NCBI GenBank assembly: GCA_000004695.1
Contig: CM000151.3
Span: 6,272,001 to 6,336,000, forward strand
Direction: 5' to 3'
Origin: Dictyostelium discoideum
Lineage: Eukaryota
DNA length: 64,000 bases
Numbering within the stretch: position 1 is the first letter of the stretch; each line of letters begins with the position of its first letter. The notes under the pieces are model-generated. The model searched no databases. It saw only the letters and a list, made by a program, of their open reading frames with translations, and had not been told where the DNA came from. The translations under genes were made by a program, and so were the position numbers. Shown piece after piece: positions 1 through 33,656 of this stretch.

Positions 1-282
1 ATCCGGTTATATTCGTTTAAAAGAAGGTTCATGTAATTTATATTCTTTTACTGGTATAACTACACAAGTTTAAATTATATTATTTAATAAAAATAAATAA
101 ATTTGATTTATTAAAAACATTATCAATACATTATTATTATTATAATTTAATTTTATTTAATTTTATTTTGATAATTATAATTAAGTTTAAAAATGAATCT
201 AAGATTAATTATTTTTTTTTAAATTTCTTAATTTTTTTTTTTTTCTTCTTTTTTTCTTTTGTTCATTTATTTATTAAATAAT

Positions 283-12186: not shown

Positions 12187-15100
12187 TTAATTCCAATTCA
12201 AAATTACAACTAAAACAGTGATATTATCACCTGAACCTCTATCATAAGAATCTTGAGCTAATAATTCTGAAATTTCAGTTGCACTTTTTCCCAATTTTAT
12301 ATTTCTTTGAACAAATTGAACGGCTTCATCATATTCGACCTTATCCCAAAGACCATCACAAGCCAAAATGAAGAAATGATCACGAGCAGTGAGATCGGTT
12401 GTTGTTTGATAAGGATCAGAGACACAAAACTTCTTTTCACCCTCTTTGTACTCCTTATCACCAAACGATCTACTAACAGCCAATGAACCAAACAAACGAT
12501 TGAAAATGATCATACCACCCAAATCGGTGACTCTCTTCTTTTCTTGGTCATCACTTGCCAAATGTTTGTAGGAGAGTAAAACCGGTTCATAGGTGACGGG
12601 TCCTTTAGGATTTGCATTTGGTTGAGCACGTGCTAAAACTATCTCTGAATCGCCTACATTTGCAGTGTAGAGTTTATTTCCAACCAATAGAGCCGATACA
12701 CCTGTGCTACCACTCTTTTCACATTTTTCAATTACAATATCATCAGCTTCAGCGTATGCATCACGGAAAGCTTGTTCATAGTCACCATCTCGGAAACTTT
12801 GAGAATTGACCAAACAATTATGAACTGTTGGCTCCAAGAGTGTTGAGGTTTCAGTACCACCATGACCATCATAAACTGCATAGTATGAGATTGGTATATC
12901 CTTTGGTGGACCATTGTAGGTTACTGCCCCCATTAGATTATTCAAAATCACATGAGTATCCTCCATATTCTTTCTTCTACCTTGTAGTGAACCGAAACCA
13001 GATTCAAGTTTAATTTTACTACCAACACCACCATTACCGCAACTATCAGCACCATTCTTTTTAGATTCAGCTGCACCATCGACTTTACTTGTCTTCTTCT
13101 CCTTTGGTGGTTTTGTTGGTTTTGGTTCTTTTGGTTCTTTTGGTTCTTTTGATTCTTTTGGTTCTTTAATTGGTTTTGGTTCTTTTGGTGGTTTTGATTC
13201 CTTTACAGGTTTTTCTTTTGGTTCTTTTATTGGTTTTGGTTCTTTTGGTGGTTTTGGTTCTTTTGGTGGTTTTGGTTCTTTTGGTGGTTTTGGTTCTTTA
13301 GGTGGTTTTACAGGTTTTGGTTCTTTTGGTGGTTTTCCTTTTCCAATTACTACCGTTGCATTATTGTTATTATTATTAGTAGAGTCTGTTGTTGTTGCTG
13401 TGGTAGTGGTTGTTGTTGTTGTAGTAGTAGTAGTTGGTAATAATGTCATTGAAGAAGTTGGTGATGATTCATTACTATAACTACTATCATTATCCATTGC
13501 ACTTGCAATTGAATTACTTATACTACCAGTTGTTGATATAACTGAACTTGGGAATGTTGATGATCCATATGTTGTTGTATTATTGTTGTTATTATTATTA
13601 TTATTTACATTTTTTAATCGAGTATTATCATTATCACTACTATATAATCCAGGTATTGAAACTGAAGTATTTGGTAAACGACTATTCCTAGATGAATTTG
13701 AACCAATTGATGAAACTGGTGATGAATTTGATTGATTATAAGGTGTTGTAAAACCTCTTTTCTCTGCATCAATTTTTAAACTATCAAAAATACCTTCAAA
13801 CTCTTCTCTAACATTATTTTTATCTAATAAATTTACAATATGACTTTTATATGGTTTATCTTTATTTTGTAACTTTTTTTTTTTAAAAAAATAAAATAAA
13901 AAATTTAAATTAAAATAAATTAATATTGATTATTTTAATAATAATAATAATAAATAATGATAAAATCTAATACATACGAATTTTGTAAATTTATTTGATA
14001 TAAAAGATACAGCTTTTTCAGGATCATTACCACCTTCATATTCAGAGAAACAAGATTTTAAATCATATTGTTTAATATTTTCATAAAAGATATCACTTGT
14101 ATTAAAAATTAAATAAATTGCTAATGATTTATCAAATAATTCAGATTTTGTTAAAGTTTCAAATGAATTTAATGATTCTAATAATAAATTTCTATGAATA
14201 TGATTATTACACATTTCAACAATTGTTGGATCTGTATTTTGTGTTGCAACTAAATGATCTGAAAAATAACTAAAAATAAATATAAATATTAAATAATTAA
14301 TTATCATAATAAATTATTTTGGTTCGTTTGTTTGTTTGTTTGTTTGTTTGTTTGTTTGTTTGTTTGTTTGTTTGTTTGTTTGTTTGTTTGTTTGTTTGTT
14401 TGTTTGTTTGTTTGTTTGTTTGTTTGTTTGTTTGTTTGTTTAATATTAATTCTTTCACTTACTCTTTTAAAGCTACAACATAAAATATATAATTTGGTTT
14501 ATAATTTTGATGTAAACCAACCCAATTCTTTGGTGAAGATTGTTTACCTGAACATCCAAATAAATCCACTTTAAATCTTTTATGAATGATTGCTGATGAT
14601 TGAATAGTATCCTTTTGATCATATGCACTAATAATATCCATCTCTGTGGGTGTATAACTTGGATCAAATACTTTAAACATTCTATCCATATAACTATAGA
14701 GTTTTAAATACTAAATTAGTATATGTAAATAAAGAATTAAATAATAATAATAATAATAATAATAATAGTAATAATGTATTTTACTTACTATTTTGGTCTA
14801 CCAGGAGTTCTAATTTCTGAACAAATTTTTGAATGATTATAAACTGATTGAATTACTTTATCTTCCCAAATACATTTACAATCCCAACCTAATTTTAGGG
14901 GGAATCTTGGTAATCTATTTCTAGCCAATTCAACTGGTTGACTTTGTATTCTTTTAACTCGAGCTAAATTATCAGGTGATAAGGTTATATTTAATCTTTC
15001 ACTATTCTCAATGAAACGAATTAACGTTGCCAATGTATTACCATAAATCAAACGTTGATAATGCTTTGCATCGGTTGGATCTGTAACGCCATATATAAAT

Positions 15101-15507
15101 TCCAACTGTCTTTGTAATGTAGTTTTACCACTCTCTGTATGTCCTAATATCATAATAGTTCCACAAAAATCATGTGCTTTTAATATTGGTACCGCTGTAT
15201 TATTATTATTATTGTTATTAGATGATATCGATGATGAATTTGTTGTATTTGTATTTGTATTAGTAGTATTATTAACACTACTATTTGATGATGTCGAAGT
15301 TGATAATTGCGCTAAATTTTGTTCATTTTGTTTTTGTTGTTGTGCTAATTGTAATTGTTGTTGATGCTGTTGATATTGTAATTGTAATTGTTGTTGCTGT
15401 AATTGATATTGTTGTTGTGCCAATTGATGTTGTTGTGCTAAACTACTATGAGCTGGTGACTGTTCTTCTTTCTTTTCTTTTTTATTCATAAATAACATTT
15501 TCTTCAT
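12187..15507 (-). CDS. spnA: Spalten-type protein: N-terminal Galpha-like domain + Ser/Asn/Thr linker + (PKEPK)n repeat + C-terminal PP2C phosphatase; ~975 aa. Exons 14789..15507, 14463..14693, 13978..14269, 12187..13872; introns 14694..14788, 14270..14462, 13873..13977
   Basis: Exons 1-3 and the start of exon 4 encode a heterotrimeric G-alpha-like domain. Matches: 'ILGHTESGKTTLQRQ' (P-loop), 'KYYMDRMFKVFDPSYTPTEMDIISAYDQKDTIQSS' (~KYYLD..YxPTxQDxLRxRVKTTGIxE), 'FKVDLFGCSGKQSSPKNWV' (~FDVGGQRSERKKWI), 'IYLIFNTSDIFYENIK' (~ILFLNKKDLFEEKI), 'EYEGGNDPEKAVSFISNKF', 'KSHIVNLLDKNNVREEFEGIFDSLKI'. Exon 4 continues through poly-T and 'KPPKEPKPVKPPKEPKPPKEPKPPKEPKP...' into a canonical PP2C domain ('FGSLQGRRKNMEDTHV', 'YYAVYDGHGG', 'GSTGVSALLVGNKLYTANVGDSE', 'LAVSRSFGDKEYK', 'DEFLILACDGLWD', 'RGSGDNITVLVV'). 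All four splice junctions are GTAAGT/GTATGT...AG and keep the frame; phases 2,2,0. The predicted length (~975 aa) and the Galpha-like + PP2C architecture match the D. discoideum Spalten protein as described in the literature (from memory). Confidence 0.85.
14326..14441. repeat. (GTTT)n microsatellite, ~29 units, inside spnA intron 2
   Basis: A perfect gtttgtttg... run at 14326..14441. The plus-strand ORF 14332..14574 ('MFVCLFVCLF..') is an artefact of it. Confidence 0.95.
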
Positions 15508-15722
15508 TTTTCATTCACTATATATATATTATAATTCATATATATAACATATGAATTTTAATTTAATTTAATTTTTATTTTTTTTTATTTTTTTTATTTT
15601 TTTTATTTTTTATTTTTTATTTTTTTTTATGAAATGTAATTTTCAAAAAAAAAAAAAATAATAAAATTTTTTTTTTTTTTTTTTAATTTATAGGTGCGAT
15701 TGATCTGTTTCTTTCTATTTTT

Positions 15723-20324: not shown

Positions 20325-20641
20325 ATGCAAAATATTGAAGAATTAGTTCAACAATTATTAATTGGCGATGAAAATGTTGGGTTTATTAATGTTCCATCAA
20401 AATTTGAGAGCGATCAACAACAACAACCACAACCAACATCCACAAATAAAAAAAATACAAATGATGATAAGAATAAAATCAATACAGTAAAGATACCAAT
20501 TTCAATGGCATTATTAGATCAATTAAGTACATTGAAATCATTATCTGCCACTTTACCATCATCACCAACAATACCACCAACCAGTACAACCCATACTGTT
20601 GGTACCTCAACTTCAACTACACCATCTAGTAATTCAACATC

Positions 20642-20686
<45 letters not shown>

Positions 20687-22669
20687 GAATAATACATCAC
20701 CACCAACATCAACTACAAATACTAGTAGTAGTAGTACAACAACCTCAAATGTAACACCATCATCAATTTTAATTGAATATGAAAATAGGATAAATGGAAT
20801 TAAACAATTAATTGAAAAGATATTGAATAAAGAGATTCCAGATTATAATTCAAAAAAGTTTGTAGTAAATTTTGATTTTTCAAGCTACCCTTCATCTGCT
20901 GATTCAATTGTGAAGGATATATTGGATAGTTATGACGGTGATTTACAAGAAGAGCAAGCAAACTACGACATGGAATTGGAGAGTAGTGGTGGCCATTTTA
21001 GTCACCACAGTAACGATATATTTGGCCCATCACCATCACCACGTGGTGCGAATTCAATCCCCAATGGTTATACAAGCTATAGATTACACTGGGCCAGTAT
21101 CATTGTTAAATTACATCAAGCAATTCTTTCAAGTTCTCTTTACCAAAACCTCTTGAAAAAGATTTACAATGTTAATGCATCTTCACAATTAACATCCTCA
21201 CAAACTTTAGTTGACTCTTTGAAAGATCCAAAAATACAATCGAAAAAAATTAATTCAAGTTTATCCTCAAGTTCATTGGTAAACAAACAATTATCATCTT
21301 CAAGCGATAACTCTTCCACTTTGGATAGTAGTGATACAACAACCACCACAACTGCCGCAAATTCAAATGCAAGTGGCTTTGCTAAATCCTCAAAAGTCAA
21401 TGACTTACAACAAGATGGTAGTGTCATTCAATCAACAAAATCAACTCCAACCACTCCACCATCTGCTTCACCTTCAACAAGTTTTCGTGGTCTTACTGGT
21501 ACTAGTGCTGATCAAGATGCTATCTTATCAATTAGTAAACAACAACCTACTTCTCCAAGTTTAGGTAAATCACTATTCTCTAGTGTAATTGGTAATAATA
21601 ATAATAACAATGTTAATAATAATAATAGTAATAATAATAATAATAGTGGTAGTTATAATAATAACAATAATAATAATAATAAAGGTAGTACAACAAGTAG
21701 TTCAGGATTTTCATTATCTGCTCTAATGTCTGGAAATAGTCGTGATGCACCACCTGCTCTTAAAGATTTAGCTGATCGTTCAACAAAATATGATCAAGGT
21801 AAAGGCATTGGTATCGATATAAATAATAACCCACTACATCAATTGCAACCACCATCAACAAATGGTGCTACTGGAGATAGATATAATCCAAATATTAATA
21901 AGTTACCATCATCCTATGAAACTGATCCAGTTTTACTTCCAGATGGTTCAACATTTGATAATACAAGACAATCATCTTCAACATCGACTTCATTATCTTC
22001 AAATCCAATATCATTTGTATCACCAACAAGCAATAATAATATTCTTCCAACAAGTCAACCTGGATCTTATAGTGGCAGTAAACCTATTCCAATGAATAAT
22101 ACCAATTCATTATTCTCACCACCATCAAATAATCCATTATCAACATCATTTGGTATGCCAGGTAGAAATAGTAATAGTAATAATAATAATAATTTCCTTT
22201 CAACTTCACCATTTGATGCACCAGGCTCTTTAACTAGTGGCGGTATGCCACCAACAAGATATCCAGATTCATTCTTTTCAACATCTGCCTCTTCAAGAGC
22301 TCCCCCAGCATGTGATGCAATTCCATCCTCAAATGTTATTCAAATTCCACAATCAAACACTAACGCTGGTAGTTCAATGTTATCAGTTTCGCCATCACCA
22401 TCATCATTAAACAACAACAATATGATTGTTGGTAGTTTATCAAGTGCAAGCAATCCATTATCATCATCTGGTGGTTTTAATAGAATGCAAGGTAGTGGTG
22501 GTTTCGAATTAAATCAATCTGGTTCAAATATTTCTCAACCAGTTATTGTGCCACCTACAACTTCTTCAATCCCAATTAATGTCCAATCATCTTCATATTC
22601 ATCAAATTCTTCTAATCCTATATTTTCTTCATCACCAAATTCTCAATTATTATTACAACAACAACAATT

Positions 22670-22710
<41 letters not shown>

Positions 22711-25700
22711 TACAACAACAATTACAACAACAATTAACTCCACAAATGCCAGCAATTGGTTCAACAATTGTACCTGCTTCAAGTTCATTTAAAGCACCAT
22801 CTCAACTTGATCTTTTATCTTCACAAACAAGTACATCATCAATTTCAACTCAATCTGGTGTTTCAAATACATCATCATCATCATCTTCTTCTTCTTCTTC
22901 CTCATCAAGTTCAACATCTACAACAAGTTCAACATTAACTTCAGGAGTTTCAAATGGTGGTGATAATTCAAATATGAATACAATTAATATTTCAAATAAA
23001 GCTCATATGGATGATACAGTTAAATCTTTATCAAAACCAATTGTTGGACTTTCAGATCATAAATTCCCAGAATGGTTAGATATTACAATTTATTGGAGAA
23101 ATGATGAAACTTCAAATGTTGTTGTTGTTGATGATAATGATATTTCTAATGGTATAAATTTAGAAATTAAACAAATATTATTAACTGAACAATCAGCTGG
23201 TAGATTAGATCATTATTTAGAATCTAAATTAGTTACATCAATTCATAATAGGTTATTGAATATTATTGAATCCAAAACCAATGAATGGGTTGAACCTATT
23301 TATAACTATTGGATAAAATCTGTGGATATCGAATATCATAATGAAATTACCAACTCTTTCCAAAACTTTATTCAAGAGTTTAACAGTCATATTTGGGATA
23401 ATAGAAAATATCAAGCATTCTTAAATAGAATTGTAAATCTTCGTAGACAATTCCCACCACCACCATCATCATCACACCAACCAGCACCAAATACACCAGC
23501 ATTGTTAACAACAACCAAAGGTATACCAATACCAATTCAAAAGAATTCCCAACAAGAAGAGATTGAAATGTCAAAGATATTCAAACAACTCGAATTGGAC
23601 ATCATTTATTTGATCTCAGTTCAACATTATTACTCTTTGAAATATATTGAAAAACTTTTAATTGGTACAATGGGTCATACTTCTGCTGATGTTAGACAAT
23701 CTTCAGTACGTTTATTAAATGTTATCTATGATTCCCATACTTGGCAATTTGAAGAACCATTAAAACCAGTAATAAGAGTTATTGGTGATGCTTTTAGAAT
23801 TGAATTAGAATTGGACCAACCATTACCTGAAAATGTATTAAAAAGAATTTATATTACAACAGTTCAACCACCAACTCAAAGATTAACAAACTTTAAATCG
23901 AGTACTATTAAAATTGGTGGTACTTATGGAAAAAATAAACAAAACTTACAATCATCATCAGCAATTTTCACAAAACATAAACCTAAAGTTGATGGTTGTA
24001 AATTATATATAGATTTACCATCATTCTATAGAGCTGGTTATTATGATTGGAGAGTTGTTGAATTAAAATCAAATGGTAAATTTGTTTCATTTGATTTTGA
24101 AACTTTTAAATTAAAATCATCAAAAGATGAAAACTATAAACAAACAGATAGTGCATCATCATCATCATCATCAATTAATGATAATCAACCAATGATATCA
24201 GATGAAAATGAAAAAATTCAAGGTAGATTTATAGTTCATCCAAAATTAAGAGAAGAAATTATGCATGAAGTTTGGGTAGATTTACAAGATTCAATTTGGG
24301 ATCCATATAGAGGTGAAATGACAAAAAAAGGTAGAATTCAAAATTTAATTGATGCTTTAGATCATTATCATCAAGAGGGTATTACTACACTTTATGTTAT
24401 GGGTTTATTAGAGAAATTACCAAGTAATCAACCATTATGTCCAACCGATAGAGATTTAGCAAATCGTTTAATTGGTGGTGATCAAATGTTCTCACAATTG
24501 GTTAATAGAGCTAAACAATTGGGTATAAAGATTGTTATCGATTCAACAACTCGTTTATCATCCAAAGCAGCCCATAGAAAATATAAAGGTGTGGTTTGTC
24601 ATACTTTGGATAATAATGGTCAACTCTCAAGATTGGAAGGTACCGATAGTTCAGAGTTCACTTGGAATGATTGTGTCTCTATGAATATGCGTAAACTTTC
24701 AGTTTGGGAAATGTTTGTTCAAGAGACTTTATTATGGGGTGATCGTGGTGTTGATGGTATTCGTATAGATAGTGCTCATACATGTCCATTGTTATTCAGA
24801 TCGAATTTGGATGAAATGTATCGTTTGGATAGTGATGATTTACCACATTATACCAATCAACAAATCTTTGAGGGTGAAATCGTTATGAAACCATCGGAAG
24901 AAGGTAAAAACTTTGGCTATTGGGGTACAACACCACCCTCACCAAAACATTCAACTCCTTTCTATCCAAATCCAATTTTCATTAAAATGACCAGAGAGGT
25001 TTGGAATCGTTTCCCACAATTTGTATTTCTTGCTGAAGTTTATTGGGATCGTGAATTACATTCAATCATTTCAGGTTTAGTGCCCTATTCTTCTGCAATT
25101 CCAAAAGCATTGGCATCGGTTTTCGATAAAGGTATCAGTAAAGATGGTATTGTTTTCGATTTAAGACAACGTCAATCAGTAAAAGCACTCTATGATTATT
25201 ATGAAATGCGTATGTCAACTTATCCACAAAATTCAATTATTCTCTATCCATCATCGACTCATCACTCTCCATATCCATTACAAATTTACAATGCTGGTGC
25301 GTGGGCTGCCGTCGATCTTATGTATTTCCTACCGGAAATTCCAATTACCTATATTGGTGAACAAAATGGTTGGTACTATCATGTTGATATTCATACAAGT
25401 CGTGTAAAAGTTGGTATGTCTGCAACACCCTATCAATTACAATATCCTCAAATTCGTGGTCATTATGCTCATCGGGTGGCACTTAGAAAATCTCATGCTT
25501 TATTACGTCGTGGTGGTATGATTCCATTGTTATGTTACCATGCAACCGGATGGCATGATCGTGTATTTGGTTTCGCACGTTTCTCTGGTAATGAAGTTGC
25601 AATCATTGCAATCAACTTTGACAATACCGACACGGAATTCTATGTCGATTGTTCACCATTGGCAAAGATTTGTTCAGATGATACAATCTATAGAATGGTG

Positions 25701-27746
25701 GATTTAATTAATCCAAGTAATCCACCACAATATTTATCATTGAACGAACTACTTCATGAAAAACATTTTGTAGTTGTACCAGGTTATTCAAGTATTTGTT
25801 GGGGTATTTATCATCAAGTTGGTTCACCTGCCGCAATGAGAGTACTCTATGAACATTCAATGACTCGTCTAAAACAATTGTTAGCAGATGATGTAGATCC
25901 ATCAAATAATTTAATTTATTCACTTATTAAAAAGAGTTTATCATCAATTGAAGAATTTGGTAAAACTCTTGAAAATATCTTATCAAATCTATCAGGTAAT
26001 ACTGAAAAAACATTTAGTAGTTTTGTTCAATCAGTACTTTACACCTTAACCAAAACCTTTGATGGTGCAACCATATTACAATATTTGGATGTTTTATCAA
26101 AGAAATCTACTCAGTCACCAAAAATTCCAAAGATTTGTCGTGAAATTTTACAACATAATACATTGGGTCCGATTGTATTTGTAACACCAGAGATTGGTCG
26201 TTTCTCAACAGTTGGTGGTGTTGGTGTAATGTTGGATGAATTAACAAGAAGTTTGCAGTTGTTAGGTTGTGAAGTTCATATTATTTCACCTTATTATAAC
26301 TATGGTAAAGGTGGTAGAACTGGTTATTTAGAAAAGGAAGAAGGTATTCGTTGGAAGAGAAATGTTTTAACCTATGTTGGACCAGATCGTGTTGAAGTTG
26401 GTGTTCATGAAGGTATGGATAAAGGTATTCATTTACACTTTTTACATCATTTCGAATACTTCCCAACACCCTATAACTCTGGTTCACCAATTCATCAACT
26501 TAAAACCATTGTATTATTTGCAAAAGCATCATTGGAATTACTTTGTCAATTAAGAATTTTACCATCAGTTGTTGTAACCAATGATTGGTTCACTGGTTTA
26601 GTTCCAGGTTATGCAAAATCGGGTGCATTTGGTACCACTTTCAATGGTACTACATTCTTCCATTTGGTACATAATCTTGAAGAAGCTTATCAAGGTAGAA
26701 TTTATCCTGATAGTGGCGACGATTTAAATTGGATTCATCATCTTCATCGTGAATTGATCGTTGATCCATATTCACATCAACTTTGTTTGAATGCATCAAG
26801 ATGTGCCTTGTTAACTTGTAATAATTGGGGTACCGTATCCAAATCTTATCTCTATGATCTATTAAGAACCAGTCATTTAGCAAATCTTTTACATAGATTC
26901 CCTGAAGCATTTGCTCATTCCAATGGTATTAGAGTAAAAGAAAGAAAACAAGCAATGAAAGCAGTTTCCACCGATCATTGGAGTGCAAAGGCAGAGCTAC
27001 AAAAGAAATATTTTGGATTGGTCGATAAATCAATACCAGTACTTAGTTTTGTTGGTAGAATTGTATTACAAAAGGGTGTTCATTTAATTTTGAATGCCGT
27101 TAGAGAATTGATTGGTCATTATCAAGGTAAAATTCAAATTTTAATTGGTGGTATGGCAAATATGAAAGATCCCTATGCAAGTAGTTGTGCTTGGTCAATG
27201 CAAGCATTGTGTAAACAATTCCCACAATCATTTTGGGCTGACCCTGATTCATTCTTTTCAGATGGTCCATTGGTTAATTTAGGCTCAGATTTTGGTTTAA
27301 TGCCTTCATTATTTGAACCAAGTGGTGTTGTACAACAAGAATACTTTGTTGCTGGTACACCAGTTATCGCTTTCAAAACTGGTGGTCTAAAAGATACAGT
27401 TTTCGAATATAATACCAACACTGAAACTGGAAATGGTTTCACTTTTGAAGCTCATAAACATACAGATTACGTTCAAGCCGTTCATCGTGCCATCAATATT
27501 TTCAATAACACTCATCATTATGAAAAAATTCGTAAATGTGCTGAAGAATCAGTTTTAGATATGTCTGTTGTTGCTGAAGCTTGGGCAAAAGAATTCTCAA
27601 GAATGAGAAGATCAATTTGGTCAACCAATCATCAATTACAAAGACTTAATGAAAAACAATCTACTGAGGTTATTGATAATAGAGATAATCATTCATCATC
27701 AACTCAACCGTTAAATTCTCAAATTAAACAACCACCACAACAATAA
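20325..27746 (+). CDS. Giant (2473 aa) protein: ~1000-aa S/T/N/Q-rich N-terminus, GH13 alpha-amylase-family domain, then GT5 starch/glycogen-synthase-type (GlgA-like) glycosyltransferase domain; single exon
   Basis: GH13 motifs: 'YHQEGITTLYVMGLLEK', 'GIKIVIDSTTR' (region I-like), 'RGVDGIRIDSAHTCP' (region II with the catalytic Asp), 'VFLAEVYWD' (region III Glu). GT5 motifs: N-terminal 'IVFVTPEIGRFSTVGGVGVMLDELTRSLQLLGCEVHIISPYY' (KTGGL-type ADP-glucose-binding loop) and C-terminal 'VIAFKTGGLKDTVFEY' (the second K-T-G-G-L signature). No hydrophobic multi-TM region at the C-terminus. Real ATG at 20325 (aaaaATGcaaaat). Confidence 0.8.
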
Positions 27747-29144: not shown

Positions 29145-32100
29145 ATGTCAGATGATAAAATTCATTTAAAAGTTAGATTGGTTGATAAGAAAGTTTTTAA
29201 AAAATTTTCATTTTATCCAAAGAAAACAGTTAAAGAGGCAAGATTATTTATAGCGGCCGAATTAGAAGTTGATCCAGATCAATATGGTTTATTCCTTCCA
29301 CCAAAGGATGATCAAAATGGTGTTTGGTTTAGAGATGATTATCCATTAGATTTCTATGGATTAGAGGGAGAGAATGAAAAAGAGGCATTATTATTCACAA
29401 GTAAAGATTCAGCACAGATGGAGTTTGTAGAATTCAAGAAACGTTATAGACCCATCAAAGTTGGTAAAGGTGATAACCAATTCCGTACATTGATGGTAGA
29501 CGACACAATGAACGTATCGGACATTGTAAAGTATGTCTCTACACAGGTGCCCATCTCAAGTGCAATCGATAGGGAGCAATACGACCAAATGAACATGTAT
29601 GAGGTTGAGGAGTTGTCCAACGATATGACCGTCAGGGAGCAGGGTTACGTTGGCGAATGCACCACCAATCTTTTACGTGGCGCCAAGGGTGATCTTGGCC
29701 TTTGCGTGCAAGTTCCTTATTTCGAGGGTTTCATCATGAGAAAGAGGGGTGGTGGTTTGATCAAGGGTTTAAAGAATTGGAACAAACGTTGGTACAGTCT
29801 TAGAAAGAATAAATTACTCTACTTTAAATCAAAATCCGATTCAACAGAGATGGGTTGTATCTTGATGAAAACAGTTCAAACAGTTAGACCTTGTACAGAG
29901 GTTGCCGATATACCATCGAAATATTCAAAGATGTGCTTTGAAATCGTTACACCCGCTAGAACATTTGTAATGTTGGCAAATAATGTTTCTGATATGAAGA
30001 AATGGGTAGAGATATTGGAATCATCTCGTAGAATGTTTGCTTATGAAACTCACTTTTTCGGTGTCGCCAGTAAAAAGATATCAGAAGGTGGTGGTGGTTC
30101 ATTCATCAATGATGACGATGACGATGACGATGATGATGATGAAAATAGTGAAAGAAAAGAACAAAAGAGAAGATTACAAGAACAAAAAATGGAAAAAGAA
30201 CGTCAAGAGAAAGAACGTATTCAAGCAGAAGAGAAAGCACGTCAAGATGAAGTTGAACGTCAAGAACGTATTCGTATTGAACAAGAACAAGCAGAACGTC
30301 AATTCATTGAACAAGAGTTGGCTCGTGCCGAGGAGGAACGTAAAGAACGTATTCGTCAAGAGCAAGAGGAACAAGATCGTCAAGAACAAGAGAGAAGAAG
30401 AATCGAAGAGGAGGAAATGGTTAAATTAATGATTGAAGAAGAGGAGAGAAGAAGAAAACTCGAAGAAAAGAGACAAGAAGATCTTAGAAAGATTCAAGAG
30501 GAACAAGAATTACTCGTGAAACAACAACAAGAATTCATTGCAAAACAACAACAACTCGAACTTGAAAAACAAAGACAACTTCAAGATCAACTCGAAGAAG
30601 ATAGACGTTTGGAGGAATTAATGTTACAAATGGAAATGGATCAAGAAGAACGTATCAAAGTCAAAGAGGAACAAGAACGTCAAGAACAAGAGAAACTCGA
30701 ACTTGCAAAGAAAATGCAAGAAGAGGAAGAGAAATTAAAAGAAGAACAAGAACGTATTCGTTTAGAACAAGAAAGAGTTGAAAAAGAACGTCAAGAAGAA
30801 GAGAAACGTATGGAATTAGAACGTATCGAAGAGGAACGTCTCGAAGCAATTCGTATTGAAAAAGTACGTATTGAAAAGGAGGAACGTGAACGTAAAGAAG
30901 AGGAGGAAAGAAAAGAAAAAGAAAGAAAGAGACAAGAGGAAGAGGAAAGAATTAAAAAAGAACAAGAAGAAAAGATTAGACAATTTGAAGAGGAAAAGAA
31001 GAAACAAGAAGAACTTAGATTAATCGAACAAGAACGTATTCGTGTCGAACAAGAATTAATTAGAAAAGAAAGATTAGAATTAGAAGAAAAACAAAGAATT
31101 GAACAAATTGAAAAAGAACAACAACAACAACTCTTATTATTAGAACAATCAAAACAAAGTGATACCGATAATGAAAATGTTGATATGATGGATGAGTTTG
31201 AACGTGAGGAAGAAGAAAGAGAAAAAGAACAATTAGCTTCAAAGAGACTTCGTTCATTACAAGCTCGTTTAGAAAGTGTTTGTGCAGAGACTCCAGAATT
31301 AAAACTTTTATTATCAGAAGCAATCTTATCTTCACCAGAGAATTTATTACTCTCTTGGGCAAATTATATTGTTAGTGGTATTTCTTCACCATCACTTCAT
31401 TCTTCAAGTAGATCACATATTCAAAGTGAATTATCTTCCTCTACTAGTGGTAGTGGTTTATTAGCTAATAATGGTATATTGTTAAATGATGGTTCATCGG
31501 TTGATTCAAATGGTAGTAACAGTGGTGTTGGTAATAGTATTAATAATGCCAATGGTAGTAGTAGTAATAGTGGTGGTAGAGTATTAAAACCATCAACAGC
31601 ATCAGTAACATTAGTACCATCGACAGCATCTATTGGTTCAAATGCTGGTTGTAGTATTTCAGCAGAGTTATCAAGAGCTTCATTATTATCATCAGGTCAT
31701 CTTGTTGGTTCTCAAGCAGTTTCACTTGTACAATTAAAGAATTTGAAATCATTAGATGCAAACTTGGAAATGTATGCAAATCTTCTCTTCAAATTGGAGC
31801 CACAAGAATTTAGTCTTCAACATTATGTAACATTAACAACCAATGCCGAAAGAGCACAATATATTCATGCATGTTTAGTTAAATTGGGTGTAACCACAAT
31901 AACTGAGGAACAATTACTCTCATCGGATTCCGATCAACATTTGAATGTTTTACTCACAATCTATGAAGAGGTTGGCGGTGAACAATGGAAAGAGGAATTC
32001 CATACTCAAGTAGTTTCCAAACGTTCCTTTGCCACTAAATATATTCAACAACTTTTATCCAATTGTGTCTCTGCTGGTTTAAATATTGCCACATCACCAG

Positions 32101-33656
32101 AGGAATTATTACCAACACTCATGAGTGGTAGAGTATTATGTGAATTGATCAATAAAGTTTACCCAGGCACTATAGATGAACGTGTAATTCAAAAGACTCA
32201 ACAATTTTGTAAAAAGAATTTAATGTTGGCTTATAATGGTGCTAAGGCACTTGGTGCAACATCAGTACCAGATATCGTCTTCTTATCCGATGATAAAGAT
32301 ACCATTTCATCCACTGTATTACATAATTTAACTTGGTCAATCGTTGAAACTTGTCTTCTTCAATCAGCTGATCCAACAAAGAATCGTCATCTCTTCCATC
32401 TATTGAGAGCTGAGACCAGAACAAGTTTCATGAAGTTAGAGAAAGAAAAGATTATGTTACGTTGGTTCAATTATCATCTAAGAAAAGGTAGTAGTCGTTC
32501 CATCAATAACTTCACTGACGATCTTGAAGATTGTGAAAATTATGCCTATCTCTTTTCAATTATCGCTCCACAACATTCTTTGAAATCTGAAATCCTCAAA
32601 GAAAATGATTGGGAGAAGAGAGCAGAGATGGTACTCTCAATGGCTGCTAAAATCGGTTGTATGTCATTGTTAAGTCCACGTGATATCGTTGAAACTGAAA
32701 ATAGTCAACTCAATCAATTATTCGTCGCCGATATTATGAGAGTTGCTCACGGTTTACCAGCTTATCAATTCCGTTTAGATGTTGAACAATTGGATGATCA
32801 AGTTCAAAAATCAAAGGATCAAGGTAACAATGATGTTGAACTCCTTCAATGGGTAAATGGTTTAGCCATTGATGGTGTCGATGCTAAACATCTCTTGGAG
32901 GACTTTAAGTCGGGTTATCTCTTTTTAAAGATCTTTGAAAAAGTTACACCACCTGGTACTTTGGATGCAAAGAGATTCAAAACCAATCCAACCAGTGTTT
33001 TCAAAATGGTTGAACTATGTAATTATACAATGGAAATCTGTCATAAATTTAAATTAAATGTTGCTGGTACAGCTGGTACCGATTTGGCCAATGGTGATAT
33101 TCGTTCAAATCGTGCCATTCTCAATCAAATTCGTCGTGTTATCGTTGGTGAAAAGACTGTTGTTGATTCAGTCATTGCCAATCAATCTGCTGTCTTAAAA
33201 TGGGCAAACAACAAGATTGGTTTGGATGTAAAAGTAAAGAGTATTCAAAGTTTCAAAGATCAATTCCTTCAAGATGGTTTATTCCTCTTGGAATTATTAT
33301 CCTCTATAGAGCAAAACTCTGTAGATCGTAAAAATATCATCACTAATTGTTCCAACGAAGAACAACAAGAATCAAATTGTCGTTACTTTTTATCTTGTGC
33401 TTGGTCAACTGGTATACCTTTAAATGTAGTTTGGGAAGATGTTCAAAAAGTTAGATCAAAATCAATCAAACATATTGTTGAAACTTTACAATCTTGGGAC
33501 TTATTAAAATCTCAACATCAAAATTTAATTAATAATAATAATAATAATAACAATAATAATAGTAATAATAATAATAATAATATTAATAATAATAATAATA
33601 ATAATAGTAATAATAATAATAGTAATAATAATAATAATAATAGTAATAATATATAG
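29145..33656 (+). CDS. 1503-aa protein: two N-terminal ubiquitin-like/RA-like folds + PH domain + ~370-aa E/R/K-rich single-alpha-helix/coiled-coil + Ser-rich linker + fimbrin/plastin-like core of four calponin-homology (CH) domains; single exon
   Basis: PH domain: 'EGFIMRKRGGGLIKGLKNWNKRWYSLRKNKLLYFKSKSDSTEMGCILMKTVQTV...CFEIVTPARTFVMLANNVSDMKKWVEIL'. ER/K block ~30100..31250 ('ERQEKERIQAEEKARQDEVERQERIRIEQEQAERQ...'). CH domains match fimbrin ABD1/ABD2: 'LMSGRVLCELINKVYPGTIDERVI', 'IMLRWFNYHLRKGSSRSINNFTDDLEDCENYAYLFSIIAP' (~ALLRWANYHL..fstDikDskaY), 'LLQWVNGLAIDGVDAKHLLEDFKSGYLFLKIFEKV', 'AVLKWANNKIGLDVKVKSIQSFKDQFLQDGLFLLELLSSIEQNSVD'. Confidence 0.8.
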   Translation: MSDDKIHLKVRLVDKKVFKKFSFYPKKTVKEARLFIAAELEVDPDQYGLFLPPKDDQNGVWFRDDYPLDFYGLEGENEKEALLFTSKDSAQMEFVEFKKRYRPIKVGKGDNQFRTLMVDDTMNVSDIVKYVSTQVPISSAIDREQYDQMNMYEVEELSNDMTVREQGYVGECTTNLLRGAKGDLGLCVQVPYFEGFIMRKRGGGLIKGLKNWNKRWYSLRKNKLLYFKSKSDSTEMGCILMKTVQTVRPCTEVADIPSKYSKMCFEIVTPARTFVMLANNVSDMKKWVEILESSRRMFAYETHFFGVASKKISEGGGGSFINDDDDDDDDDDENSERKEQKRRLQEQKMEKERQEKERIQAEEKARQDEVERQERIRIEQEQAERQFIEQELARAEEERKERIRQEQEEQDRQEQERRRIEEEEMVKLMIEEEERRRKLEEKRQEDLRKIQEEQELLVKQQQEFIAKQQQLELEKQRQLQDQLEEDRRLEELMLQMEMDQEERIKVKEEQERQEQEKLELAKKMQEEEEKLKEEQERIRLEQERVEKERQEEEKRMELERIEEERLEAIRIEKVRIEKEERERKEEEERKEKERKRQEEEERIKKEQEEKIRQFEEEKKKQEELRLIEQERIRVEQELIRKERLELEEKQRIEQIEKEQQQQLLLLEQSKQSDTDNENVDMMDEFEREEEEREKEQLASKRLRSLQARLESVCAETPELKLLLSEAILSSPENLLLSWANYIVSGISSPSLHSSSRSHIQSELSSSTSGSGLLANNGILLNDGSSVDSNGSNSGVGNSINNANGSSSNSGGRVLKPSTASVTLVPSTASIGSNAGCSISAELSRASLLSSGHLVGSQAVSLVQLKNLKSLDANLEMYANLLFKLEPQEFSLQHYVTLTTNAERAQYIHACLVKLGVTTITEEQLLSSDSDQHLNVLLTIYEEVGGEQWKEEFHTQVVSKRSFATKYIQQLLSNCVSAGLNIATSPEELLPTLMSGRVLCELINKVYPGTIDERVIQKTQQFCKKNLMLAYNGAKALGATSVPDIVFLSDDKDTISSTVLHNLTWSIVETCLLQSADPTKNRHLFHLLRAETRTSFMKLEKEKIMLRWFNYHLRKGSSRSINNFTDDLEDCENYAYLFSIIAPQHSLKSEILKENDWEKRAEMVLSMAAKIGCMSLLSPRDIVETENSQLNQLFVADIMRVAHGLPAYQFRLDVEQLDDQVQKSKDQGNNDVELLQWVNGLAIDGVDAKHLLEDFKSGYLFLKIFEKVTPPGTLDAKRFKTNPTSVFKMVELCNYTMEICHKFKLNVAGTAGTDLANGDIRSNRAILNQIRRVIVGEKTVVDSVIANQSAVLKWANNKIGLDVKVKSIQSFKDQFLQDGLFLLELLSSIEQNSVDRKNIITNCSNEEQQESNCRYFLSCAWSTGIPLNVVWEDVQKVRSKSIKHIVETLQSWDLLKSQHQNLINNNNNNNNNNSNNNNNNINNNNNNNSNNNNSNNNNNNSNNI

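Follow-up and report, generated by a model that had tools for sequence, protein, structure and literature searches.

The minus-strand gene at positions 15507-12187 of the window (the whole 64,000-nt stretch of Dictyostelium discoideum DNA that was analysed) is very probably spnA (Spalten), a four-exon gene encoding a 975-residue protein in which a G-alpha-like domain is followed by an intact PP2C domain. In the G-alpha-like domain, the switch and catalytic residues are gone throughout the family, yet the domain is constrained as strongly as the phosphatase; whether it binds and hydrolyses nucleotide bears on how Spalten is regulated. It may be an anciently fixed pseudo-GTPase, in which nucleotide would be held by an intact P-loop but neither hydrolysed nor used for switching, a condition that would be common to all dictyostelid groups and at least one more distant relative.

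Identity and exon structure of the gene

The identification as Spalten is presumed from a match to the published protein, namely the length of 975 aa, the succession of G-alpha-like domain, charged inter-region and PP2C domain, and the origin from D. discoideum. A protein with these features, required for prestalk differentiation, was reportedly published by Aubry and Firtel (Genes Dev) in 1998. Since the gene and its architecture were reportedly described then, the locus is not new, and the G-alpha/PP2C fusion and the developmental role have likewise been known since that year. In a comparison of genome type (AT-rich, dictyostelid), domain order and length, no difference from the published Spalten came to light. 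The protein collection searched contains no exact match to the 975-aa protein, and no named D. discoideum entry appears among the homology hits; dS from the sequence labelled 'D. cf. discoideum' is 0.02.

The spliced coding sequence of 2928 nt (Table 1) has a single stop, the terminal TAA at 12189-12187. The first in-frame ATG (15507-15505) is preceded, two codons upstream, by an in-frame TGA (15513-15511). The protein starts with MKKMLFMNKK, which leads into a Q/N/S tract of about 100 residues. The three introns all end in AG and have a GC content of 6-20% compared with 21-34% in the exons. The four-exon structure proposed in the first-pass annotation, with introns in phases 2, 2 and 0 starting with GTAAGT or GTATGT, is thus reproduced, the joined frame being open up to the terminal stop, and the proposed length of about 975 aa agrees with that of the translated product. 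An alternative acceptor for intron 2, at 14259, was rejected because its use, translated by hand, puts the reading out of frame and brings stops within about 13 codons. The 64,000-nt window contains no tRNAs.

Table 1. Features of the Spalten locus (window positions; residues refer to the 975-aa protein)
Feature	Position	Strand	Details
Exon 1, 719 nt	14789..15507	-	Start codon, Gln/Asn/Ser-rich N-terminus (residues 1-103), start of G-alpha-like domain including P-loop
Intron 1, 95 nt	14694..14788	-	GTAAGT...AG, phase 2, 12% GC; read-through meets a TAG at once
Exon 2, 231 nt	14463..14693	-	Switch I and G3/switch II equivalents
Intron 2, 193 nt	14270..14462	-	GTAAGT...AG, phase 2; contains (GTTT)29
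Exon 3, 292 nt	13978..14269	-	G4 equivalent NTSD
Intron 3, 105 nt	13873..13977	-	GTATGT...AG, phase 0, 6% GC
Exon 4, 1686 nt	12187..13872	-	End of G-alpha-like domain, Ser/Thr/Asn linker, P/K/E repeat, PP2C, stop
G-alpha-like domain, residues 91-445	13780..15237, spanning introns 1-3	-	Pfam PF00503, E=7.5e-62, profile 4-332/333, single stretch
P-loop GHTESGKTT, residues 122-130	15144-15118	-	
Switch I equivalent DIISAYDQKDT	14638-14606	-	Exon 2
G3/switch II equivalent KVDLFGCSGKQ, residues 281-291	14572-14540	-	Exon 2
G4 equivalent NTSD, residues 373-376	14103-14092	-	Exon 3
G5 equivalent VNLL	within 13842-13822	-	Exon 4
Imperfect Pro/Lys/Glu repeat, residues 594-674	13093..13335	-	About 80 residues; P29 K28 E15
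PP2C domain, residues 705-965	12220..13002	-	Pfam PF00481, E=9e-73, profile 3-255/255
PP2C motif RRKNMED	12978-12958	-	Aligned to PPM1B/PPM1A structures
PP2C motif YDGHGG	12873-12856	-	Aligned to PPM1B/PPM1A structures
PP2C motif CDGLWD	12360-12343	-	Aligned to PPM1B/PPM1A structures
PP2C motif GSGDNIT	12237-12217	-	Aligned to PPM1B/PPM1A structures

Sequence comparison with other species supports the three splice junctions of this model. In D. citrinum, D. cf. discoideum and D. dimigraforme (coding sequences of 971-988 aa), the exon ends are identical and the introns diverge in both length and sequence. Polysphondylium violaceum possesses three introns with matching positions and phases, and across each junction the orthologues are collinear, residue for residue, with the Spalten translation. 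In addition, a Trinity transcript of a relative (P0012) encodes the G-alpha-like and PP2C parts as one contiguous protein.

The GenBank annotation of the orthologues from the three sister species above, however, presents exon 1 and exons 2-4 as two separate genes, the first product (236-241 aa) ending at the TAG reached by reading through the intron 1 donor and the second comprising 729-745 aa. That the locus actually consists of two genes is highly improbable. The split would fall midway through the helical part of the G-alpha domain, whose Pfam match is one unbroken stretch over this and the other two junctions; among the sister species, intron 1 varies from 87 to 150 nt and keeps its GTAAG...AG ends but no conserved sequence, whereas the flanking exon ends are perfectly conserved; the P. 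violaceum gene, with an intron at the matching site, is annotated as a single 877-aa protein; and the orthologues read continuously through ...PGR.KYYM.... Several recent dictyostelid annotations break the gene at phase-2 introns because read-through yields an immediate stop, and orthologue sets built on such annotations therefore miss the G-alpha/PP2C fusion.

The phosphatase, the spacer and the intronic repeat

Overall, the polypeptide consists of a Gln/Asn-rich N-terminus, a complete G-alpha fold, a low-complexity Ser/Thr/Asn and charged Pro/Lys/Glu spacer, and the PP2C domain. The combination of an N-terminal PF00503 match with a C-terminal PF00481 match in one polypeptide recurs in three relatives (P0001, P0011 and P0012). 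The description of the PP2C domain as fully canonical is borne out by a match that spans the profile and by an intact catalytic core, in which the metal-coordinating RxxMED, DGHGG, DGLWD and DN motifs align with those of PPM1B.

Between the two domains, the first-pass annotation placed a perfect 45-residue repeat. The placement stands but the extent and the perfection do not: the tract is nearly twice as long (Table 1) and, among its 10 KEPK units, only four consecutive PPKEPK copies are perfect, three of which are DNA-identical 18-mers. The inter-domain region is highly charged, and K/E-rich tracts are found at the corresponding place in the orthologues. The repeat evolves fast, differing in length and sequence between species (dN/dS 0.3-1.7), and is a flexible, charged spacer. 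The (GTTT)29 microsatellite previously noted in an intron is confirmed as 29 perfect units on the plus strand (14326-14441; 30.0 copies at 14322-14441 according to TRF) that read as (CAAA)n in the gene sense. It is neutral and specific to the D. discoideum genome studied. In intron 2, D. cf. discoideum has about 3 units, D. citrinum carries (AAT)n instead, and D. dimigraforme has no such repeat.

Fold, constraint and motifs of the G-alpha-like domain

The Pfam match covers both the Ras-like and the inserted helical domain. The AlphaFold model of an orthologue matches the structures of Gαi1, Gαq and Gαt with the probability of 1.00, with TM scores of 0.81-0.85 (target-normalised) against Gαi1, and the domain itself shows similarity to Gαi1 from the PDB with an E-value of about 2e-27 and about 22% identity. 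An exhaustive search among 1.84 billion proteins, starting from the T. lacteum orthologue (P0003), retrieves only 7 representatives at E<=1e-30; family members score E<=3.6e-42 compared with 1.5e-25 for the best canonical G-alpha. Spalten-type fusions are thus closer to one another than to any canonical G-alpha. Both domains are under strong purifying selection, with dN/dS of 0.06-0.08 in the G-alpha-like part and of 0.04-0.19 in PP2C. The family-invariant residues form clusters in the P-loop, the helical domain and linker 2, and none is located in switch II.

The nucleotide-binding motifs were compared in 12 family members, Gαi1 and six canonical G-alpha controls using HMMER and MAFFT alignments. 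In Gαi1 numbering, the Spalten protein carries the replacements G42T, R178Y, T181K, D200G, Q204K and K270T, and VNLL in place of TCAT. None of the 12 family members has R178, T181, D200, Q204 or K270, and all of them retain GxxxxGKTT and N269; D272 is kept as well, except in T. lacteum, which has Glu. The P-loop GHTESGKTT, which the first pass had already recognised, conforms to the Walker A pattern GxxxxGK[ST], with Thr in place of Gαi1 G42, a residue whose change to Val (G42V) impairs GTPase activity. An invariant P-loop makes it less likely that the domain is entirely free of nucleotide.

In switch I, both the catalytic Arg and the Mg-binding Thr are missing, their positions being occupied by Tyr264, which is invariant in the family at the R178 position, and by Lys267, respectively; the family has no conserved Thr at T181. 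In G3, the DxxGQ consensus is lost, as had been proposed on the basis of DLFGCSGKQ in place of DVGGQ. The insertion that this reading implied, however, disappears in both alignments, which are ungapped (FDVGGQR opposite FGCSGKQ), so that G286, G289 and K290 occupy the motif positions, and neither the Asp nor the Gln of DLFGCSGKQ is conserved in the family. The whole segment is unconserved, with Lys, Thr, Glu or Pro at the Q204 position, although Gly203 is kept in most members. The reported change of NKKD to NTSD in G4 is present, with the Asn and Asp of the NKxD consensus retained and the Lys lost; the T. lacteum sequence is NINE. In G5, the TCA[T] consensus is absent; [IVM]N[LI]L is the usual form in the family, and the Trinity relative P0012 has TSSI. 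The degeneracy thus extends beyond the motifs first noticed, to R178, T181, G42 and G5, as well as to the lack of switch II conservation in the family. The MGxxxS lipidation signal is also missing, and the domain has no free C-terminal receptor-coupling tail because its last helix runs into the linker.

Possible modes of action and comparison with known systems

In the likely division of labour, PP2C would be the output enzyme and the G-alpha-like domain a regulatory and targeting module. The original description of Spalten reportedly saw PP2C as the effector and the G-alpha-like domain as responsible for membrane targeting and regulation; Mg/Mn-dependent Ser/Thr phosphatase activity was reportedly observed as well. 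Given an invariant Walker A motif GxxxxGKTT and the surviving Asn and Asp of G4, the G-alpha-like domain probably still binds nucleotide phosphates. The replacement of the catalytic Arg and Gln, the Mg-binding Thr and Asp, and Gly42, together with the lack of constraint on switch II, suggests that GTP hydrolysis and the canonical switch I/switch II spring have probably been lost, although we would put this only slightly above an even chance. The earlier suggestion of a non-hydrolysing or non-canonical switch is reasonable, although it goes beyond what sequence can prove.

The principal alternative to a pseudo-GTPase is a genuine GTP/GDP switch in which catalysis is by non-canonical residues or aided by an external GAP, and which turns PP2C on and off. 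A cycling switch is the model that the original description reportedly favoured: the domain is said to have been treated as GTP-regulated and probed with activating and inactivating point mutations of the G-alpha style, and mutants behaving like their canonical G-alpha counterparts would point to a working switch. In favour of this model are the complete G-alpha fold with its helical domain, the strong constraint, the invariant Walker A motif, the retained Asn and Asp of NKxD and the survival of Gly203 in most members. Nevertheless, we consider it rather unlikely given that the positions of R178 (now Tyr), Q204, G42 (now bulky), T181, D200 and G5 are changed in every member, that switch II contains no residue conserved across the family, and that both the lipidation signal and the receptor-coupling tail are absent. 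More doubtful still is the opposite extreme, a nucleotide-free pseudo-GTPase whose sole role is that of a docking scaffold, comparable to plant XLG2. The missing residue classes are indeed those reported for XLG2 (10.1101/795088), and both Mg ligands outside the P-loop Ser/Thr are lost. However, every member whose sequence extends over the P-loop has the same Gly, Lys, Thr and Thr there, even the remotest at 33-34% identity, and such invariance is difficult to account for if phosphate is never bound.

A further-reaching reading, to which we give somewhat less than an even chance, is a pseudo-GTPase that holds nucleotide without hydrolysis or switching. If it is correct, Spalten would not be GTP-regulated, PP2C would be permanently docked by a G-alpha-shaped adaptor, and the conserved surface (RFPL..KC.WED, PGR..YY and SAY) would bind some partner. 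A literature search on pseudoGTPase G alpha found no papers.

With canonical G-alpha, represented by Gαi1, Spalten shares the full Ras-like and helical fold, the Walker A loop and the G4 Asn and Asp, but it differs in the replacement of G42, R178, T181, D200, Q204, K270 and TCAT, in the lack of an N-terminal lipidation motif and a free C-terminal tail, and in the fusion to a phosphatase. Its PP2C domain resembles human PPM1A and PPM1B in the full-length domain match and in all metal-binding motifs, but is tethered to a G-alpha-like regulatory domain via a low-complexity linker of about 250 residues. A parallel in domain degeneracy is plant XLG2. Its binding of GTPγS is weaker than that of canonical G-alpha by a factor of 100-1000 (bioRxiv 10.1101/795088) and, like Spalten, it contains within a larger protein a G-alpha-homologous domain without the residues for nucleotide coordination and hydrolysis (10.1101/795088). 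In XLG, however, the G-alpha-like part is C-terminal, follows a Cys-rich extension, is not accompanied by an enzyme domain and still binds Gβγ, whereas in Spalten the G-alpha-like domain has a perfect Walker A motif and is N-terminal to PP2C. XLG and Spalten are of independent origin.

Gene structure of Spalten

The window is very AT-rich (GC content of 25.6%), with short gaps bounded by GT...AG separating open frames, a composition typical of dictyostelid genomes. The four-exon structure with intron phases 2, 2 and 0 proposed in the first-pass annotation holds: the joined exons yield a CDS of 2928 nt, with a frame open for 975 codons and a single terminal stop, and the GC content is 6-20% in the introns versus 21-34% in the exons. 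The ATG at 15507 is the first possible start codon because an in-frame TGA is located two codons upstream. A 10-codon upstream ORF (MKNEENVIYE) overlaps this start codon in another frame and may be a chance occurrence in an AT-rich leader.

Features of the Spalten gene and its surroundings (window positions unless marked as residues)
Feature	Position	Strand	Remarks
Exon 1	15507-14789	-	joined-CDS translation
Intron 1		-	95 nt, GTAAGT...AG, phase 2
Exon 2	14693-14463	-	joined-CDS translation
Intron 2		-	193 nt, GTAAGT...AG, phase 2
(GTTT)29 microsatellite	14326-14441	+	perfect, within intron 2
Exon 3	14269-13978	-	joined-CDS translation
Intron 3		-	105 nt, GTATGT...AG, phase 0
Exon 4	13872-12187	-	joined-CDS translation
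Upstream ORF	15482-15514	-	ATG 15514
G-alpha, PF00503	residues 91-445		Pfam E=7.5e-62, profile 4-332 of 333, single stretch
P/K/E tract	13335-13093 (residues 594-674)	-	P29 K28 E15
PP2C, PF00481	residues 705-965		Pfam E=9e-73, profile 3-255 of 255
Neighboring ORF	20325-27746	+	2473 aa; sole Pfam matches, a C-terminal starch-synthase-type glycosyltransferase pair
Neighboring ORF	29145-33656	+	1503 aa; talin-F0, PH and four CH-domain matches

The splice junctions were tested by comparison with the corresponding loci in three sister species (D. citrinum, D. cf. discoideum and D. dimigraforme) and in Polysphondylium violaceum, which is less closely related. None of the six exon ends in the sister species differs from the window by more than three mismatches, and the joined CDS is open over 971-988 codons. 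The sequences of their introns (87-150, 99-193 and 90-126 nt for introns 1, 2 and 3, respectively) are unalignable, and every one of these introns runs from GTAAG or GTATG to AG. The P. violaceum orthologue, annotated as one 877-aa protein, has its three introns at identical codon positions and in identical phases. Alignment of the junction-spanning protein sequences (...PGRPKYYMDRMF..., ...VVALKDYFSDH... and ...NKFTKFLQNKDK...) with the orthologues and Gαi1 reveals neither insertions nor deletions at the three junctions. The frame is lost if an alternative acceptor at 14259 is used. Judging by this comparison, the four-exon model can be considered established short of cDNA.

The (GTTT)29 microsatellite is present as previously described, with TRF reporting 30.0 copies (99% match). 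Read on the coding strand as (CAAA)n, the repeat runs to 29-30 units in this genome and to about 3 in D. cf. discoideum; D. citrinum carries (AAT)n instead, and D. dimigraforme has no such repeat. The expansion is neutral and lineage-specific. The description of the P/K/E tract as a perfect repeat of 45 residues does not stand on either count: the tract spans residues 594-674 and includes 10 KEPK units, and its sole perfect stretch is a run of four PPKEPK units. Three of these four share an identical 18-nt DNA sequence, suggesting recent slippage. The tract comprises 87 residues with 11 KEPK units in D. citrinum, 56 residues with 8 units in D. cf. discoideum, and for the most part VEKVK units in D. 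dimigraforme, with K/E-rich tracts in its place in more distant genera. Charge is its sole conserved property, which fits a flexible spacer.

Annotation of orthologous loci

In GenBank, the orthologue is split into two "hypothetical proteins" of 236-241 aa and 729-745 aa in each sister species (loci L001 6001-9293, D. citrinum; L002 6001-9247, D. cf. discoideum; L003 6001-9355, D. dimigraforme). At these loci, read-through of the phase-2 donor TA|GTAAG leads to an immediate TAG. The annotation of Tieghemostelium lacteum (L004, 7880-7940) places a 258-aa PP2C gene 38 nt from the G-alpha-like gene (P0003, 544 aa); the reading frame of the former extends upstream in the +1 frame across an A-rich tract, suggesting that a frameshift, a misassembly or an overlooked small intron, and not a genuine split, separates the two. 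Acytostelium subglobosum has two Spalten-like genes, P0008 and P0011. The former terminates at ...VVPLKE, exactly at the stop expected if the conserved intron 2 donor were read through, and is therefore probably a truncated gene model. The Logan-derived protein P0016 (125 aa) is identical to the mechanical ORF 13930-14307 on the minus strand, translated intron flanks included, so the protein collection contains prokaryote-style gene calls on this eukaryotic sequence.

Domain architecture and the Spalten-like family

Given that the Pfam match is a single stretch, the G-alpha domain is continuous across all three junctions. The PP2C domain had been called canonical, a label that holds for the metal-binding core: the catalytic residues are intact, with RxxMED (RRKNMED), DGHGG, DGLWD and DN conserved in alignment with the human PPM1B and PPM1A structures.

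An HMMER search with the G-alpha-like domain identifies Gαi1 as the best PDB-chain match (E about 2e-27), with the nucleotide-binding region ungapped. MAFFT was then used to align the motifs of 12 family members with Gαi1 and with six controls, canonical G-alpha proteins from the exhaustive search described below; the alignment discriminates, since all six controls retain DVGGQR, NKxD and R178.

Nucleotide-binding motifs (Gαi1 numbering)
Motif	Gαi1	Window	Change
G1	GAGESGKST	GHTESGKTT	G42 to Thr
Switch I	RTRVKTTG	SAYDQKDT	R178 to Tyr264; T181 to Lys267
G3	FDVGGQR	FGCSGKQ	D200 to Gly286; Q204 to Lys290; G203 kept
G4	NKKD	NTSD	K270 to Thr
G5	TCAT	VNLL	motif replaced

The proposed degeneration of the catalytic motifs was correct and indeed understated: the alignment shows R178, T181, D200 and Q204 all replaced, along with G42 and G5. 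The insertion implied by reading DVGGQ as DLFGCSGKQ disappears in the ungapped alignment, where the Asp of VDLF lies three residues before D200 and the Gln falls at R205; neither is conserved in the family.

The degenerate pattern is shared by every relative found: the three sister species, P. violaceum, Synstelium polycarpum, T. lacteum, the two A. subglobosum paralogues, a further EukProt protein, P0012 (a 666-aa EukProt Trinity transcript with both domains and a much shorter, non-repetitive linker) and P0010 (a partial, 319-aa G-alpha-like fragment from a JGI metagenome). The latter two are more remote, at 33-34% identity, and the G-alpha-like/PP2C fusion may occur outside the named dictyostelid genera as well; PP2C is present in both new full-length members. 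When 1.84 billion representatives were searched exhaustively by HMMER with the T. lacteum orthologue as seed, the family proved small and well separated (members at E<=3.6e-42 versus 1.5e-25 for the best canonical G-alpha; only 7 representatives at E<=1e-30). Another match, P0020, is a canonical G-alpha of 708 aa with a Pfam Intein_splicing match (PF14890) inserted between residues 266 and 572.

Both domains are under purifying selection: Nei-Gojobori dN/dS of the window against the three sister species is 0.06-0.08 for the G-alpha-like domain, which is therefore as constrained as the phosphatase (0.04-0.19), with 0.28-0.42 for the N-terminal tract and Ser/Thr/Asn linker and 0.3-1.7 for the P/K/E repeat. 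The divergent members are identical at 47 of 347 positions, which cluster in the P-loop (G....SGKTT..RQ), the helical domain (RFPL.L..D.KC.WED), PGR...YY and the linker 2/switch I segment (F....P...P...D...Y). Switch II (residues 284-296), the most invariant stretch of canonical G-alpha, contains no residue conserved across these members. The AlphaFold model of the T. lacteum orthologue (pLDDT 70-95 across most of the domain) agrees with structures of Gαi1, Gαq and Gαt at TM scores of 0.81-0.85, normalized to target; the whole G-alpha fold, helical domain included, is retained.

Possible role of the G-alpha-like domain

The PP2C domain is the likely output of the protein. The G-alpha-like domain probably still holds the nucleotide phosphates, because Walker A is invariant and the G4 Asn and Asp are retained, so that a fully nucleotide-free scaffold appears improbable. 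The Arg and Gln needed for hydrolysis are absent, as are Thr181 and Asp200, on which Mg binding and the switch I response to the gamma-phosphate depend in canonical G-alpha. Given these four losses, a cycling switch is unlikely, although most members retain the switch II sensor G203. A working non-canonical switch is improbable, but somewhat less so than the nucleotide-free scaffold. A nucleotide-bound domain that is hydrolysis-dead or non-switching has a slightly better than even chance of being correct, these three estimates overlapping as sub-hypotheses.

Spalten, its domain fusion and the associated biology have been described before, and the first-pass annotation rebuilt them correctly from raw sequence. 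Aubry and Firtel (Genes Dev 1998) reportedly found the protein to depend on its PP2C activity, with the G-alpha-like domain required for membrane targeting and regulation, and are said to have interpreted this domain using G-alpha-style point mutations. That catalytic residues are missing throughout the family while the domain stays strongly constrained is a neat observation, though no new type of finding. Among documented proteins, plant XLG2 comes closest: its G-alpha-homologous domain lacks nucleotide-coordination and hydrolysis residues, and its GTPγS binding is 100-1000 times weaker than that of canonical G-alpha (bioRxiv 10.1101/795088). The P-loop, by contrast, is perfect in Spalten and not in XLG2.
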